Below, in pieces: positions 27,184 through 33,763 of a DNA stretch of 64,000 nt. The stretch covers positions 70,940-134,939 of IMG/VR virus record IMGVR_UViG_3300045988_120282, one strand, 5' to 3'. The position numbers and the translations under genes are program-made. Within the stretch, counting starts at the first letter, position 1. Every line of letters starts with the position of its first letter. This stretch comes from a virus. The notes under the pieces are model-generated. The model was given only the letters and a program-made list of their open reading frames with translations. It searched no databases and had not been told where the DNA came from.

Positions 27184-27780
27184 ATGGACGTTAATAAATT
27201 ATTGGTTGTCGTCGATATGCAGAATGATTTCATCGACGGAAGCCTTGGAACCAAAGAAGCACAGGAAATTGTTCCCAAAGTAATTGAGAAAATTAAAAAT
27301 TTTGATGGCATTATTGTAGCAACAATAGATACACATCACGAAGATTATTTTTCTACACAGGAAGGAAAGAAACTTCCAGTAAAACATTGCATTAAAGGAG
27401 AAGATGGTTGGCGATTCAATAAAAAAATTGCAAAGGAGTTATTATCATCTGAAATGTTTACAGAATATCATAAGCAAGAAAAAGGAATATATCTTTTAGA
27501 CACATATCGTAAAGAAACATTTGGGTCATTAGATCTTGCATGTGATTGTGAAGCTGAGTTTGGAGAAGGTAATAGATCTCACCCAGAAGATGTTGAAATT
27601 ACACTCATTGGTCTTTGTACAGATATTTGTGTAATCTCCAACGCAATGTTGTTAAAAACAACGTTACCAGAGGCAAAGCTTATTGTAGATGCATCGTGTT
27701 GCGCAGGTGTAACGCCAGAGAGTCACAAGAACGCACTTGAAGCTATGAAAATGTGCCAGATTGAAGTAATCAATGAGTAA
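27184..27780 (+). CDS. isochorismatase-family hydrolase, nicotinamidase (PncA)-like
   Basis: LLVVVDMQNDFIDG (catalytic Asp region) and LIGLCTDICVISNA (catalytic Cys) typical of PncA/isochorismatase fold. Confidence 0.75.
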   Translation: MDVNKLLVVVDMQNDFIDGSLGTKEAQEIVPKVIEKIKNFDGIIVATIDTHHEDYFSTQEGKKLPVKHCIKGEDGWRFNKKIAKELLSSEMFTEYHKQEKGIYLLDTYRKETFGSLDLACDCEAEFGEGNRSHPEDVEITLIGLCTDICVISNAMLLKTTLPEAKLIVDASCCAGVTPESHKNALEAMKMCQIEVINE

Positions 27781-27794
27781 AGGAGTGATGAAGG

Positions 27795-28631
27795 ATGATT
27801 ACTATTGGTGGAGTACCAGTTGTTCCAGAATCTTTTCCAGATGGAACACAGAAAATTGATTTACCGTTAGGAGCAATGAGATCACGGATTGCAGTAAATA
27901 AATTTGTATCAATTGAATGGCTGTATGAATCAGATAAAGAATTATTTTCGCTATATTGTATTTCAAAAAGTATTCGAGAATATTTCCCACATTTATCACA
28001 GTGTTTAGTGATGCCGTATATTCCGAATGCAAGATTTGACAGGGTTAAAGATCATAACGAATGTTTTACATTAAAATATTTTGCAGAAATCATCAATGAA
28101 TTAAATTTCAGAAAGGTCATCGTAGCAGATCCTCACTCAGATGTTTCTAAAGCATTGATTGATCACCTACAATATATACCAATTAAACTATATATTTCTA
28201 AGGTTTGCAATAAAGTCCTTAAAGCAGAACCATCAAGAAATCTTGTAATCTATTTCCCAGATAGCGGATCACTAAAAAGATATTCTGAATTTGTATCAGA
28301 TGATTATCCGATTGTCTATGGAATTAAAAATCGTGATTGGAAGACAGGCAAAATTCTTGGTATTGAGATTCATGGAGATACAGATAAATTAGATGAGAAT
28401 ACAGCAATTTTAATGATTGATGATATTTGTAGTAAGGGTGGCACATTCTACTACGGATCAAAAGAATTAAACAAATACGGTTGTAAAGATATGTATTTAT
28501 ATGTTAGTCACTGTGAAAATACAATTCTTGATGGAGAATTATTAAAGGAAGATAGTTTGTTTAAAAAAGTGTATACGACACGTAGTATTTTTACAAAAGA
28601 GCATGAGAAGGTTGAGGTGTTAGATTTATGA
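27795..28631 (+). CDS. ribose-phosphate pyrophosphokinase (Prs) homolog; candidate ADP-ribose pyrophosphokinase (Adps-like)
   Basis: Prs-family blocks VMPYIPNARFDR (vs PYYGYARQDR), VIVADPHS (vs IALDLHA), AILMIDDICSKGGT (vs AILIDDIIDTAGT); shorter and divergent relative to housekeeping Prs. Confidence 0.75.
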   Translation: MITIGGVPVVPESFPDGTQKIDLPLGAMRSRIAVNKFVSIEWLYESDKELFSLYCISKSIREYFPHLSQCLVMPYIPNARFDRVKDHNECFTLKYFAEIINELNFRKVIVADPHSDVSKALIDHLQYIPIKLYISKVCNKVLKAEPSRNLVIYFPDSGSLKRYSEFVSDDYPIVYGIKNRDWKTGKILGIEIHGDTDKLDENTAILMIDDICSKGGTFYYGSKELNKYGCKDMYLYVSHCENTILDGELLKEDSLFKKVYTTRSIFTKEHEKVEVLDL

Positions 28632-30097
28632 AACAGACAAATCCAATGTTATTAATTGATTTTTACAAAGCAGTCCATGCTGAAATGTTACCAAAAGGTA
28701 TTACAAAATCTGTTTCTTATTTTACTCCACGTATGAGCAGAGTAAAACGATGGAATGAAGTAGCCATGTTTGGATTACAAGGATTCATTAAAGAGTATTT
28801 GGTCGATTATTTTAATGAGTATTTTTTCTTTGAATATAGAAACAAAGCAATTGGTACTTATAAGACAGTAATGGATGCAGCTCTTGGAGAAGGTACATAT
28901 GGATTACAGAAAATCGAAGATTTATATGATCTTGGCTATCTTCCAATTGAGATTAAGGCTCTTCCTGAAGGAACTTTAGTACCAATGCATGTGCCGATGT
29001 TTAGTATTGAGAATACTCACAAAGATTTTGCATGGTTACCACAGGCATTAGAAAGTTTAATTTCAGCAGAAATGTGGCATCCGATGATAGCTGCGACTGT
29101 CGGGCATACATATAGACAGATCGTTAATAAGTTTTATGAAATGACTTGCGATGATGATATCCCAAAATCTAAGGCATTAGGGGCTTTCGATTTTCGTGGC
29201 GAAGAATGTTTACAGTCTGCGGTTAAAGCAGGGGCAGGATGGTGTTTATCATTCTTGAATACAGCAACAGTTCCAACAATTCCGTATTTAGAGAGAAATT
29301 ATAACTGTGATTGTACGAAAGAGCCAGTTGCTTTTGGTAGTCCGTCTACTGAGCATTCGGTTATGTGTAGTAATTATGCGATTGACGGAGATGAAGAGAC
29401 ACTGATTAAAAGATTGCTAACAGAGATTTACCCAAATACAAGCTTCTCCGCAGTGTTAGATTCTTATGATTATTGGAATGTTGTAGAGAATATTCTTCCA
29501 AAACTCAAGAATGAGATCATGAATCACAATGGATGTTTTCTTGTAAGAGGGGATTCAGGAGATTGTGTAGATGTAGTAACCAGAACAGTATTCAAGTTAT
29601 GGGAAGAATTTGGCGGAACTACGAATAGTAAAGGATACAAAGTATTAGATCCTCATGTAAAAGCAATTTATGGAGATTCAATTACAGTGCAGAGATGTGA
29701 GCAGATTTATGACATCTTAGAGAAAAATGGATTCGCAGCAAGCAATGTTGCACTTGGCGTTGGATCATTCTCATTTCAGTGTATCGAAGAAGATGGAGTT
29801 TTGAAACCATTTACAAGAGATACGTTTAGTAGTTGCATCAAAGCAACATATTGTGAGATTGATGGCAGACCATATCCGATTTTTAAGAATCCAAAAGATG
29901 GCGGATTTAAGAAATCTCAGAGAGGTTTATGTCATGTCTATAAAGGATCAGACGGCAAACTGACATTTAAAGATGAATATACTTCAGAAAATCTTCCAAT
30001 GAATAATTTGCTTGAGACGGTATTTAGAGACGGTAAATTGGTCAAAGAACAGTCATTACAGGAGATTAGAAGAGTGTTAAACGAAGGAGAATTTTAA
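28628..30097 (+). CDS. NAMPT-family phosphoribosyltransferase (NadV / Namat-like)
   Basis: Collinear with NAMPT over full length: LLIDFYKAVH, LPIEIKALPEG, FDFRGEE, PSTEHSV, VLDSYD, VRGDSGD, NSKGYKVLDPHVKAIYGDSI. Confidence 0.85.
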   Translation: MKQTNPMLLIDFYKAVHAEMLPKGITKSVSYFTPRMSRVKRWNEVAMFGLQGFIKEYLVDYFNEYFFFEYRNKAIGTYKTVMDAALGEGTYGLQKIEDLYDLGYLPIEIKALPEGTLVPMHVPMFSIENTHKDFAWLPQALESLISAEMWHPMIAATVGHTYRQIVNKFYEMTCDDDIPKSKALGAFDFRGEECLQSAVKAGAGWCLSFLNTATVPTIPYLERNYNCDCTKEPVAFGSPSTEHSVMCSNYAIDGDEETLIKRLLTEIYPNTSFSAVLDSYDYWNVVENILPKLKNEIMNHNGCFLVRGDSGDCVDVVTRTVFKLWEEFGGTTNSKGYKVLDPHVKAIYGDSITVQRCEQIYDILEKNGFAASNVALGVGSFSFQCIEEDGVLKPFTRDTFSSCIKATYCEIDGRPYPIFKNPKDGGFKKSQRGLCHVYKGSDGKLTFKDEYTSENLPMNNLLETVFRDGKLVKEQSLQEIRRVLNEGEF

Positions 30098-30114
30098 GAG
30101 AGGAGATATAAAAC

Positions 30115-30885
30115 ATGAGTTTTAATGCAGCAGAAACCAAAGACAGATTAGTACAGTGGATTAGAGATTGGTTTAAAGTTAATGGAAGATGGTGTAATGC
30201 CGTTGTAGGAATTTCAGGCGGTAAAGATTCATCAGTTGTCGCTGCCTTATGTGTCGAAGCACTAGGTAAAGATCGAGTTATTGGAATTATGATGCCACAG
30301 GGTGTGCAGAGTGATATTGAGTATTCTCAGATGCTATGTGATCATCTAGGAATTGAACATTACACAGTTAATATTTTTAATGCTTGCAGAGATATTAAAC
30401 ATGAAATCAGAGATGAATTAGGCGGTAAATGGAGTAAACAGAGTGCCACAAATTTACCTGCTCGTATCCGAATGGCTACATTGTATGCTTTTGCACAGAG
30501 TATGAATGGAAGAGTAGCAAATACATGTAATTTATCTGAAGATTGGGTCGGATATGCAACAAGATATGGAGATTCAGCCGGAGATTTTAGTCCATTAAGT
30601 GATCTGACTGTGACAGAAGTTAAAGCAATTGGTAGAGTTCTGGGACTTCCAACAGAGTTAATCGAAAAAACACCTACTGATGGATTATGCGGTAAGACAG
30701 ATGAAGATAATCTTGGATTTACATATGATATGTTAGACGAATATCTGAGAACTGGAGTATGTAAAGATGAAGCAGTGAGACAGATCATTGACGAGATGCA
30801 TGAGAAGAATGTATTTAAACTTGCTCCAATGCCTAAATTTATATCTGGCATGTGGATCGAGGCAGGAATGGAGTTGGATGATTAA
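30115..30885 (+). CDS. nadE: NH3-dependent NAD+ synthetase
   Basis: PP-loop VVGISGGKDSSVVAALC and overall NadE length/architecture. Confidence 0.85.
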   Translation: MSFNAAETKDRLVQWIRDWFKVNGRWCNAVVGISGGKDSSVVAALCVEALGKDRVIGIMMPQGVQSDIEYSQMLCDHLGIEHYTVNIFNACRDIKHEIRDELGGKWSKQSATNLPARIRMATLYAFAQSMNGRVANTCNLSEDWVGYATRYGDSAGDFSPLSDLTVTEVKAIGRVLGLPTELIEKTPTDGLCGKTDEDNLGFTYDMLDEYLRTGVCKDEAVRQIIDEMHEKNVFKLAPMPKFISGMWIEAGMELDD

Positions 30886-31285: not shown

Positions 31286-32746
31286 ATGATTGAAGTAATT
31301 GGAACAGTGGTACCAGTGGTTATTGCGGTAGGTGGCGTAGGAGCTATTATCGGTAGCGGTTATGTCAAAGCAAGTCCAGATAAAGCTTATATTATTTCTG
31401 GACTTAGAAAGACACCTAAGACATTAATTGGTAAGGCAGGGTTAAAAATCCCATTCTTTGAAAAAGCAGATCATCTTAATCTTGAGTTAATTCCAATTGA
31501 TGTTAAGACATCAAGTTCTGTGCCTACAGCAGATTATATCAATATCAATGTAGATGCAGCGGTCAATGTAAAGGTTAGCAGTAATCCAGAAAGATTAAAA
31601 CTTGCAGCAGAAAACTTCTTAAATAAGCCAGTAGGCGATATTGGACAGGTCGCAAGAGAAGTCCTTGAAGGTAATATGCGAGAGATCGTTGGAAAGATGA
31701 GCCTCGAAGAAATGGTTTCTGATCGTCAGAAATTTGCACAGCTTGTTACAGAAAATGCGAAGCCAGACCTTGCTGCAATGGGATTAGATATCATCAGTTT
31801 TAATGTGCAGAATTTTATGGATGATAATGATGTTATTGAAAATCTTGGTGTAGATAATGTTGTTAAAATTCAGAAGAAGGCTGCAATTTCCAGAGCTGAA
31901 AGCGAAAGAGATATTGAAAAAGCAAAAGCAATGGCTGAAAAAGAAGCGAATGATGCAAGGGTTGAGTCAGAAACAGCGATCGCAGAAAAGAATAACAATC
32001 TGGAAATTAAAAAATCTGAACTTGAGAAGATTTCAAAAGCAAAGAAGGCTGAGGCAGATGCAGCATACAAGATTCAGGAAGAAAAATCACGTAAAGAAAT
32101 TGAAATTGTAACTGCGGATGCTAATATTATGCGTCAGGAAAAAGAAATTGAACTGAAACGTAAAGACGTTGAGGTAACAGAGCAGACATTAGATGCACAG
32201 ATCAAGAAACAGGCAGAGGCTGAAAGATATGCCTCTCAGCAGAAAGCAGATGCAGATTTATATAAGAGACAGAAAGAGTCAGAAGCTAATAAATATGCTA
32301 AAGAAAAAGAAGCTGAATCTACAAAATATGCTATGGAACAGGAAGCTGAAGGTATCCGTGCGAAAGGTGTAGCAGAAGCTGAGGCGATTAAAGCAAAAGG
32401 TATTGCTGAAGCAGAAGCGATCGAAAAGAAAGCCGAAGCTATGAAGCAGATGGGTAAAGCTTCTATCGTCGAAATGATGTGCCAGATGTTCCCAGAAGCA
32501 GTTAAAAATGCAGCTGCGCCATTAGGAAACGTAGGAAGTATCACTATGTATGGAGAAGGCAATACAACAAAATTAACAAAAGATATTATGAATGTTGTGA
32601 ATCAGGTATCAGATGGTGTTAAAGGATCTACAGGTGTTGATCTTGCAAAGATGTTGAAAGATTTTGTTTCTGAAGATAAAGAAGTAGAGTTTACAGATAA
32701 TGAAAATCTTGGAACACCAGAGCCAGCAGATTACCGTGAGTTCTAA
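31286..32746 (+). CDS. floT: flotillin (SPFH/band-7 domain, FloT/YuaG-like)
   Basis: N-terminal TM helix, SPFH core (REVLEGNMREIVGKMSLEEMVSDRQKFAQLV...MGLDIISFNV), Glu/Ala-repeat coiled coil (AEAEAIKAKGIAEAEAIEKKAEAM), C-term IVEMMCQMFPEAVKNAAAPLGNV as in B. subtilis FloT. Confidence 0.9.
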   Translation: MIEVIGTVVPVVIAVGGVGAIIGSGYVKASPDKAYIISGLRKTPKTLIGKAGLKIPFFEKADHLNLELIPIDVKTSSSVPTADYININVDAAVNVKVSSNPERLKLAAENFLNKPVGDIGQVAREVLEGNMREIVGKMSLEEMVSDRQKFAQLVTENAKPDLAAMGLDIISFNVQNFMDDNDVIENLGVDNVVKIQKKAAISRAESERDIEKAKAMAEKEANDARVESETAIAEKNNNLEIKKSELEKISKAKKAEADAAYKIQEEKSRKEIEIVTADANIMRQEKEIELKRKDVEVTEQTLDAQIKKQAEAERYASQQKADADLYKRQKESEANKYAKEKEAESTKYAMEQEAEGIRAKGVAEAEAIKAKGIAEAEAIEKKAEAMKQMGKASIVEMMCQMFPEAVKNAAAPLGNVGSITMYGEGNTTKLTKDIMNVVNQVSDGVKGSTGVDLAKMLKDFVSEDKEVEFTDNENLGTPEPADYREF

Positions 32747-32760
32747 TAGGAGAAATTATT

Positions 32761-33495
32761 ATGGCAATTATTATTATTTGTGTAATTGTAGCAATTATCG
32801 CATATTTACAATTTACTAAAAACGGAAAGCAGATTAAAAATGTGGCATCTGGAACAGTTGCAGAAAAGATCAAAGAAAATGCAATGACTCCAGAGGGAGC
32901 AAGAGCCAGATATAATACTGCAATTAAAGAGAAACAGGACTTTTATAAGAAAACAATGGGTACATACACAACGGTAGCTGGTAGATTGGCAACAATGGAA
33001 GATGATCTCAAAGAAACAAAAGAAGAAATTTCTAAAACCGAGGCAATGATCAACCAGTACATTGATAATCATGATGATAAAAAAGCAATGTATTATGCTC
33101 AAAAATTAGCCACGCTAAAGGCACAGAAATCAGTGTACGAAAAGAAAATCCCAGAGTTGCAATCCACAAAAGATAAACAAGAAGAAATTAAAAACCAAGC
33201 GTATGATCAGCTCATTAAGCTAAAAAGCGAAAAAGATACTGTGGTTCTTCAGATGGAGGCAGATCAGCAGATTGCAGAATTGCAGAAAAATTTAGATCAA
33301 TACAATAGTTCAAATGCTGCTCAGGAAGGTTTGGAAGAGGTTCGAGAAGGAGCAAAGAAACTTAGCGAACAAGCCAAAGGCGTTGCTATTGCGTATGAAT
33401 CTAGTGCAGAAACATTGGATTATCATATGGAGCAAGAAGAGCGACAGCAAGAAGCTAAAGCCATATTAGATCAGATGAAAAATGCTCGCAAATAA
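32761..33495 (+). CDS. membrane-anchored coiled-coil protein, PspA/IM30-like
   Basis: N-terminal TM helix then long heptad-repeat region; MEDDLKETKEEISKTEAMI and later segments resemble PspA helices; assignment is tentative. Confidence 0.4.
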   Translation: MAIIIICVIVAIIAYLQFTKNGKQIKNVASGTVAEKIKENAMTPEGARARYNTAIKEKQDFYKKTMGTYTTVAGRLATMEDDLKETKEEISKTEAMINQYIDNHDDKKAMYYAQKLATLKAQKSVYEKKIPELQSTKDKQEEIKNQAYDQLIKLKSEKDTVVLQMEADQQIAELQKNLDQYNSSNAAQEGLEEVREGAKKLSEQAKGVAIAYESSAETLDYHMEQEERQQEAKAILDQMKNARK

Positions 33496-33536: not shown

Positions 33537-33630
33537 ACTGGCATTTTATGACTCTATAAAACACAATATATAGTGATTATCCAATTATTGAACCACTATA
33601 TATAGTTGTATAAAGTGCCAGTCATGGAAA
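33537..33630. repeat. large nested inverted repeat upstream of tRNA
   Basis: Outer arms AACTGGCATTTTATGAC / ATAAAGTGCCAGTCAT; inner arms CACAATATATAGTG / CACTATATATAGTTGT. Confidence 0.45.
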
Positions 33631-33763
33631 CATAGCTCAGTTGGTAGAGCAGGCAATACATAAACATTCATTTTTCTACCTCCATATAAGTATTTTTATT
33701 TATTTACATTTAATTTTCATCACATATAAATTGCCGACACAGGTTCGATTCCTGTTGTTTCCA
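33626..33763 (+). tRNA. tRNA gene interrupted by an ~67-nt AT-rich insertion in the anticodon loop (anticodon region CAT?)
   Basis: 5' half GGAAACA-TA-GCTC-AGTTGGTA-GAGC-A-GGCAA (33626-33656) and 3' half TTGCC-GAC-ACAGG-TTCGATT-CCTGT-TGTTTCC-A (33731-33763) form perfect acceptor, D, anticodon and T stems; loop begins TACATAA; no encoded CCA. Confidence 0.5.

Follow-up and report, generated by a model that had tools for sequence, protein, structure and literature searches.

Why should a phage carry two further genes of nicotinamide adenine dinucleotide (NAD+) metabolism beside a gene pair of the type that constitutes NAD+ reconstitution pathway 1 (NARP1), and which form of the pyridine base would its transferase then use? 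The question is raised by a stretch of viral DNA of 64,000 nucleotides (nt) (IMG/VR virus record IMGVR_UViG_3300045988_120282, positions 70,940 to 134,939; hereafter the window), in which a nicotinamidase-like gene and an NAD+ synthetase gene enclose the homologues of the two NARP1 enzymes, Adps and Namat (Osterman et al., bioRxiv 10.1101/2024.02.11.579819). Sequence comparison leads, with moderate confidence, to the answer that this cassette would encode NARP1 in a deamidated form with four enzymes, the transferase linking nicotinate to ADP-ribose pyrophosphate (ADPR-PP).

The four-gene cassette

The original prediction had described four consecutive co-oriented genes, and the four open reading frames (ORFs) are found accordingly, all on the + strand:

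27184..27780, +, PncA-like nicotinamidase-type cysteine hydrolase, 198 amino acids (aa); Pfam Isochorismatase PF00857, E 9e-19
27795..28631, +, Adps-like enzyme of the PRPS fold, 278 aa; phrog_619, 3e-66, no Pfam match
28628..30097, +, variant Namat-family transferase, 489 aa; NAPRTase and NAMPT_N domains, phrog_448, 2e-158
30115..30885, +, NH3-dependent NAD+ synthetase NadE, 256 aa, single domain; Pfam NAD_synthase PF02540, 3.5e-57

Each gene is preceded by a Shine-Dalgarno site; the gaps in the cassette measure 14 and 17 nt, and adps and namat overlap by 4 nt. This overlap, together with the placement of the two encoded proteins in the Adps and Namat clades, bears out the NARP1 signature that had been recognized in a Prs-like gene followed by a NAMPT-like gene. 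No megablast match to the cassette turned up in 50,697 phage records, which made searches at the protein level necessary.

The Prs-like protein was compared with both Adps and housekeeping Prs, and it groups with validated Adps. It shares 34% identity with the Adps of SPbetaL1 (E 2.7e-40) against 24% with Escherichia coli Prs (E 5e-8), and in a neighbour-joining (NJ) tree rooted on the latter it is nested within the clade of validated phage Adps enzymes. Its PP loop, DDICSKGGTFYY, is of the Adps type, its length of 278 aa compares with 315 aa for E. coli Prs, and its score against the ribose-phosphate diphosphokinase model TIGR01251 is 74 bits, with a cut-off of 113. The equivalents of F18, R87, H121, D161 and K185 of the ICP1 Adps (PMC13586617) are conserved along with the DD pair; because these residues are conserved in Prs as well, they are a sign of an intact active site and not of specificity.

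The transferase was likewise set against Namat and Nampt, and on two counts it belongs with the former. Its best PDB matches are 9w5x/9w5w (1.3e-115), whose chains of 491/496 aa agree with the SPbetaL1 Namat numbering of PMC12774641, with human and bacterial Xcc-type Nampt at about 1e-50; and in an NJ tree rooted on the NARP2-type Nampts of Vibrio phage VH7D, Aeromonas phage Aeh1 and phiEap-3 it falls inside the Namat clade.

The pyridine pocket of the transferase

In the SPbetaL1 Namat, the nicotinamide pocket is built from F189, R192, D215, A242, R306, D13' and Y15', of which D215 hydrogen-bonds the amide of nicotinamide, and the substitution D215A lowers NAD+ formation 8.1-fold (PMC12774641). 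The equivalent residue of human NAMPT, Asp219, sets substrate specificity (PMC7096376, PMC4919578), where D219S switches substrate affinity and D219A abolishes activity (PMC4919578, Table 2). The window enzyme has Ala at SPbetaL1 position 215 (LSFLNTATVP vs LSFTGTDTIP) and Ser at position 242. An Asp beside a carboxylate would be repulsive, so the loss of this Asp and the addition of a hydroxyl are what would be expected of a site for nicotinate.

The same substitutions separate two groups within the family. Of 175 variant sequences, 164 carry Ala at position 215 and 11 carry Ser, whereas 37 of the 38 classical sequences have Asp there and one has Glu; the systematic differences between the groups are confined to positions 215, 242, 190 (Ser, changed mostly to Asp in the variants) and 396. 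The remainder of the active site, namely D13, Y15, F189, R192, H245, R306, D308, G360, D361, G390, T398, R399 and D400, is invariant or nearly so in both groups.

Association of the pocket with the gene set

The genomic context of these substitutions was surveyed in 214 Namat-family loci gathered from IMG/VR, GTDB genomes and GenBank phages. Among the 176 loci with Ala or Ser at 215 and Ser at 242, pncA, adps and nadE are all present in 149, most of the others being cut by contig ends; among the 38 loci with Asp or Glu at 215 and Ala at 242, the full set is found in none, and neither pncA nor nadE is found in any. In 144 of these 149 loci the genes stand in the order pncA-adps-namat-nadE, at Namat identities as low as about 48%, which argues against an arrangement by chance. 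A further search covered 1.84 billion cluster representatives (50% identity), and the best 150 were examined: 94 combine Asp215 with Ala242, 50 combine Ala or Ser215 with Ser242, and the others are mostly truncated or odd, so that the two positions co-vary almost perfectly among these 150. All four genes were also present in four of six further variant lineages (P0263, P0272, P0266 and P0284), whereas the two nearest Asp215 controls, P0265 and P0275, have adps and namat only. Apart from an exception described below, the change from Asp215/Ala242 is confined to enzymes that sit with PncA and NadE, and NadD was found in none of the loci; on these two grounds the deamidated variant, put forward in the original prediction as a possibility, is now considered the probable one.

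The survey also bears on another explanation, by which the cassette is an ordinary NARP1, making NAD+ directly from nicotinamide and ADPR-PP, with PncA and NadE as passengers that might, for example, boost the Preiss-Handler flux of the host. The Adps-Namat pair overlaps by 4 nt as it does in NARP1, and the transferase has an intact catalytic core, both of which are consistent with such a system. However, the amide-binding residue is gone in every member of the variant group, a loss that is costly to classical Namat, as the D215A measurement indicates; a nicotinamidase made by the phage would draw on the nicotinamide that Namat needs; and PncA or NadE lies next to an Asp215 Namat in 0/38 loci and 0/2 controls. 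This explanation is therefore regarded as very improbable.

The adenine clamp and the choice of donor

The second question is whether the transferase would draw on ADPR-PP or on 5-phosphoribosyl 1-pyrophosphate (PRPP). Of the adenine clamp, the window enzyme retains R40 and F392, and its clamp helix motif carries a 9-aa insertion (GSFSFQC-IEEDGVLKP-FTRD vs GSFTYQYNTRD in SPbetaL1). Ten variant representatives retain the classical clamp motif (e.g., GSYTYQYVTRD), all six of the further variant lineages among them. In phage Phass-1 (OQ749652.1), an early-branching member of the variant clade, the full clamp motif GxYTYQYVTRD is kept in a gene series annotated as nicotinamidase, ribose-phosphate pyrophosphokinase, nicotinamide phosphoribosyltransferase, hypothetical and hypothetical, the final one of which is NadE-like; the Phass-1 genome paper lists the nicotinamidase and does not discuss the module. 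The PRPP-preferring NARP2-type Nampts, in contrast, show GMGGGLLQ at the clamp site.

The main rival to the deamidated NARP1 is a PRPP-based Preiss-Handler salvage, in which the Prs-like enzyme would supply PRPP, the transferase would form nicotinic acid mononucleotide (NaMN), a host NadD would convert it to nicotinic acid adenine dinucleotide (NaAD), and the phage NadE would act last; ADPR-PP would then be uninvolved, or, in another form of the idea, the transferase would take both donors. Most bacteria require NadD to make NAD+, and a phage infecting them need not encode its own. The pocket change would fit the use of nicotinate equally well in this scheme, the clamp insertion could have loosened the recognition of adenine, PRPP is usable by classical Namat in vitro, and the hosts own Preiss-Handler enzymes, as is illustrated by Clostridial chromosome fragments whose PncA and NadE share about 52% identity with those of the phage. 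The points on the other side are that the Prs-like protein lies within the Adps clade, of which the SPbetaL1 member gave no measurable product in a Prs assay; that R40 and F392 are kept, and the ten representatives with the full clamp are early-branching, the four-gene set being present in P0263, P0272, P0266 and P0284; and that the clamp site of the PRPP-preferring Nampts is of a different kind.

The distribution of NadD and PncB points in the same direction. BLAST with the PncB and NadD of Bacillus phage G detected no homologue of either in any related locus, and a Pfam sweep of the window, which covers 64 kb of a genome of roughly 160 kb, had no NadD, Nmnat, PncB or cytidylyltransferase-type family among the matches listed. 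Phage G, the sole phage found with a PncB-type nicotinate phosphoribosyltransferase, has this gene next to isochorismatase and NadE genes and also encodes NadD, and it possesses no Adps or Prs-like gene. If NaAD were formed directly from ADPR-PP, the NadD step would be unnecessary, which fits the absence of NadD. ADPR-PP is accordingly favoured over PRPP because of the Adps partner, the clamp (R40 and F392 here, complete in the early branches) and the lack of NadD and PncB. The original prediction had kept a conventional, PRPP-supplied salvage as its alternative; that alternative is weakened and is judged unlikely.

The PncA-like and NadE enzymes

The best solved relative of the PncA-like protein is the pyrazinamidase/nicotinamidase of Pyrococcus horikoshii (1ILW/1IM5, E 1e-12), and the alignment of the two matches D10, D52, H54, H71 and C133 of the latter. 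The catalytic triad D11, K110 and C149 and the metal site D49, H51 and H68 are shared by at least 98% of the 143 unique homologues, the identities of which reach as low as 29%. Its score against the nicotinamidase equivalog NF008623 (NCBIfam) is 30.7 bits and lies so far under the cut-off of 174 that the protein is a divergent nicotinamidase member at best. NadE, on the other hand, scores 190.3 bits against TIGR00552 (cut-off 63.65), and its best PDB match is the NH3-dependent NAD+ synthetase 2E18 (5e-37); the 256-aa protein has no glutaminase domain. From the known reactions of the two families, the NH3 freed by PncA could serve as a substrate of the NH3-dependent NadE.

Two GenBank records entitled 'UNVERIFIED: Bacteriophage sp.' (MT835706.1, locus L225, and MT836475.1, locus L228) encode a PncA or NadE that shares about 52% identity with its phage counterpart, and at first seemed to be counter-examples to the association, in the form of phages with a lone PncA or NadE; their neighbouring genes, which encode GreA, a germination protease, a Tad ATPase and a tRNA-editing protein, identify them instead as fragments of Clostridia chromosomes. 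The comparison suggests that the phage pncA and nadE were captured from hosts that use deamidated salvage themselves. NadE alone is not diagnostic of the cassette, since cyanophage P-TIM68 carries it among nucleotide-sugar genes without a Namat.

Proposed pathway and its role

In the proposed pathway, the trigger would be a host NADase that splits NAD+ into ADP-ribose (ADPR) and nicotinamide. The PncA-like nicotinamidase would then hydrolyse nicotinamide to nicotinate and NH3; the Adps-like enzyme would convert ADPR and ATP to ADPR-PP and AMP; the variant Namat would join nicotinate, not nicotinamide, to ADPR-PP, yielding NaAD and pyrophosphate (PPi) and bypassing NaMN and NadD; and NadE would finally turn NaAD, ATP and NH3 into NAD+, AMP and PPi. 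Every substrate and product in this series, as well as the anti-defence role, is a prediction.

Several observations weigh against this scheme. Most members of the clade have Ala rather than Ser at position 215, and in human NAMPT the corresponding D219A causes a loss of activity and not a switch. The window enzyme departs from the strict published Namat clamp motif, although it has Phe at position 3 and the Arg of the loop (PRMSRV), and the 9-aa insertion displaces the position-7 aromatic residue, by which the donor preference could have been changed; classical Namat, too, uses PRPP in vitro. Among the further variant lineages, P0382 is a real exception, with none of the partners Adps, PncA and NadE encoded nearby on its 13-kb contig, and P0274 lies on a contig of 4.6 kb that is too short for its gene context to be judged. 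The variant enzymes have a single origin, as described below, and the locus counts are consequently not independent trials. Lastly, the deamidated route would cost two ATP equivalents more than NARP1, in return for a benefit that is only conjectural.

Genes of related function accompany some of the related cassettes. In the Ser215 subclade, a Tpt1/KptA RNA 2'-phosphotransferase (L120:7891-8469, +, PF01885, 3e-48) and a NADAR-domain protein (L120:10176-10694, +, PF08719, 7e-28) are encoded in or beside the cassette, and a KptA-like gene also forms part of the NAD salvage cluster in Bacillus phage G. A further ORF of about 250 aa with a HAD-like DxDxT motif (FCVDFDDTLYDF) and no Pfam match lies between the Namat-like gene and nadE in L032 (7482-8240, +) and in 37 other loci; its product may be a phosphatase with a pathway intermediate as substrate, comparable in this to the Macro-domain phosphatase found in NARP1-AP.

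The Tpt1/KptA and NADAR families both use NAD+ or process ADP-ribose, and their presence is in keeping with a metabolic booster in place of a counter-defence: the cassette would raise NAD+ for phage replication regardless of any host NADase, for instance by recycling the ADPR and nicotinamide that arise from ADP-ribosyl-transferring enzymes of phage or host. NARP2, moreover, raises NAD+ even without a defence system. The proposed starting material, however, is plentiful only on NAD+ cleavage, and the intermediates of NARP1 have been seen only under active defence, so that a pure booster is considered quite unlikely. This alternative concerns the role of the cassette and not its chemistry, and it is compatible with a deamidated NARP1.

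Evolution of the variant clade

A tree was built from 142 near-full-length sequences (50%-identity cluster representatives and three references), from which the pocket and clamp columns had been removed. All 45 variant sequences fall in one clade with a single change of state, and the forms with the classical clamp adjoin those bearing the insertion. Several independent origins of Ala or Ser215 had been considered and are rejected by this tree, which gives a single origin. The association between pocket and gene set is thus a clade-level trait that has been kept over deep divergence (identities below 50%), and it is not the outcome of repeated convergence. The pocket change and the four-gene set seem to have come first and the clamp insertion later. 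The variant clade is large and old, and most of its members come from phages that infect gut Clostridia.

A few loci show the family in other circumstances. In L232 (128-4614), adps, pncA, a Namat gene with Ala215 and Ser242, and nadE are preceded by a gene with a weak match to the NrtR winged-helix family and followed by a gene for a methyl-accepting chemotaxis protein; the cassette here probably lies on a bacterial chromosome and is controlled by an NAD-responsive regulator. Many Namat-family genes have products of 550-1100 aa or give matches split into two or three pieces, which indicates inteins or other in-gene insertions, and in Felixounavirus VpaE1 an HNH endonuclease gene stands between adps and namat. 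The Vibrio phage ICP1 isolate 2018_Mat_002 (MW794175.1, L223) has an Adps ORF of 232 aa and a Namat ORF of 439 aa, vs about 280 and about 490 aa as described, and its NARP1 pair may be inactivated. Adenylosuccinate-synthetase-like (PurA/PurZ-like) genes are found near a Namat-family gene in unrelated loci (L123:2797, +, and L231:4305-5510). Calcineurin-like (Metallophos) phosphoesterase genes lie close to the Adps-Namat pair in two further unrelated loci, L236 and L238, and one is encoded within the first 23 kb of the window.

Comparison with known systems

The cassette shares with NARP1 a phage-borne pair of adjacent, co-oriented and translationally coupled Adps-like and Namat-like genes, in which the catalytic core, R40 and F392 are kept. 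It differs from NARP1 in its conserved PncA-like nicotinamidase and NadE genes, in the Ala215 (Ser in some relatives), Ser242 and 9-aa clamp insertion of its transferase, and in the prediction of four steps with NaAD, rather than NAD+, as the transferase product. NARP1-AP, in which a Macro-domain ADPR-1''-phosphate phosphatase, Adpp, is added to NARP1 (bioRxiv 10.64898/2026.01.28.702374), is likewise an extended NARP1 operon whose extra enzymes fit the core pair to a different input. Its extension, however, lies on the ADPR side (ADPR-1P to ADPR), whereas that of the cassette lies on the pyridine side, and no Macro domain was seen in the window.

With the Preiss-Handler pathway (PncA-PncB-NadD-NadE, as in Bacillus phage G gp275/277/281/283), the cassette would have in common the nicotinamidase at the beginning, NadE at the end and NaAD as an intermediate. 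In place of PncB and NadD it has the Adps-like and Namat-family enzymes, and the likely source of its ribosyl-adenylate moiety is ADPR instead of PRPP and ATP. NARP2 (Nampt with a bifunctional Nmnat, of the Vibrio phage KVP40 type) also builds a phage pathway to NAD+ on an enzyme of the NAMPT family; unlike the cassette, its Nampts have Asp215/Ala242, an entrance with GMGGGLLQ and no aromatic clamp, and their partner is Nmnat and not Adps.

The original NARP1 preprint, the Namat structure paper, and the aRES/NARP1-AP and RyR-domain preprints contain no mention of NadE, PncA, nicotinamidase, nicotinic acid or NaAD, and no paper in the collection searched treats nicotinic acid adenine dinucleotide and NAD+ reconstitution together in a phage context.

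Phage setting and neighbouring genes

The window is phage DNA, to judge by near-identical proteins on viral contigs and by its gene content. The Namat-like protein recurs with 100% identity on a 141-kb IMG/VR viral contig and with 98-99% identity on contigs that reach about 170 kb in length, and among the products of the window are DNA polymerase III alpha, a RecD-like helicase, RecJ, two sigma factors and Bro-N proteins. It also contains a PemK/MazF-like toxin and a phage integrase. Contigs with related loci are binned mainly with Lachnospiraceae and other gut Clostridia, and an NCBI protein of 97% identity comes from an Anaerostipes isolate. Within 21.5-34.5 kb of the window, a scan for promoters and terminators gave counts that are not above those of shuffled sequence and no + strand terminator; the cassette accordingly appears inside a long co-directional gene array, and its operon boundaries are undefined. 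An Rfam scan yielded no riboswitch, the NAD+ riboswitch included.

The original prediction had also suggested that the genes for a 689-aa and a 129-aa protein upstream of the cassette may belong to the same module, a suggestion that found no support. Their homologues occur in only part of the clade and in varying position, sometimes upstream of the cassette and sometimes about 4.5 kb downstream of it, and they fall into no annotated family, but into PHROGs of unknown function. The 689-aa protein has no Pfam or NCBIfam match, and the only structural match of its AlphaFold2 model, which is of medium confidence (predicted local distance difference test, pLDDT, 69), is a TerD-like beta-sandwich (Foldseek E 2.7e-4). 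No link to NAD was seen for the 689-aa protein, which was modelled, or for the 129-aa protein in family scans.

Three features follow the cassette on the + strand:

31286-32746, +, flotillin/SPFH-family protein; Band_7 8e-24, FloT model 298 bits, below cut-off
32761-33495, +, Lys/Glu-rich ORF of 244 aa; no Pfam match
33626-33763, +, match to the Rfam tRNA model, 46.4 bits, 138 nt

The flotillin/SPFH gene and the 244-aa ORF form a pair that is unusual as phage cargo and is found only in some close relatives. In the tRNA-like element, the acceptor, D and T arms fit the model and 81 nt stand in place of the 15-nt anticodon arm; ARAGORN reports no tRNA in the window. The fit to the model points to a tRNA gene interrupted by about 66 nt, either an insertion or an intron.

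Implications

The formation of NaAD and PPi from nicotinate and ADPR-PP is a reaction absent from the literature searched, and with a somewhat better than even chance, as far as the sequence comparisons can indicate, it would define a four-enzyme 'deamido-NARP1'. If this is true, it would be a new enzymatic reaction in NAD+ biochemistry, and NARP1, which has been described as a two-enzyme and nicotinamide-dependent pathway, would gain a second branch through nicotinate and NaAD. Residues 215 and 242 would then furnish an annotation rule by which nicotinamide-using and nicotinate-using Namat enzymes could be told apart, and an explanation would be at hand for the PncA and NadE genes that travel with NARP1 on hundreds of contigs from gut phages. 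A nicotinate-using pathway could let phages rebuild NAD+ where the host nicotinamidase quickly removes nicotinamide, which raises the question of whether the nicotinamidase activity of the host or some feature of NADase-based defence selects for the deamidated route.

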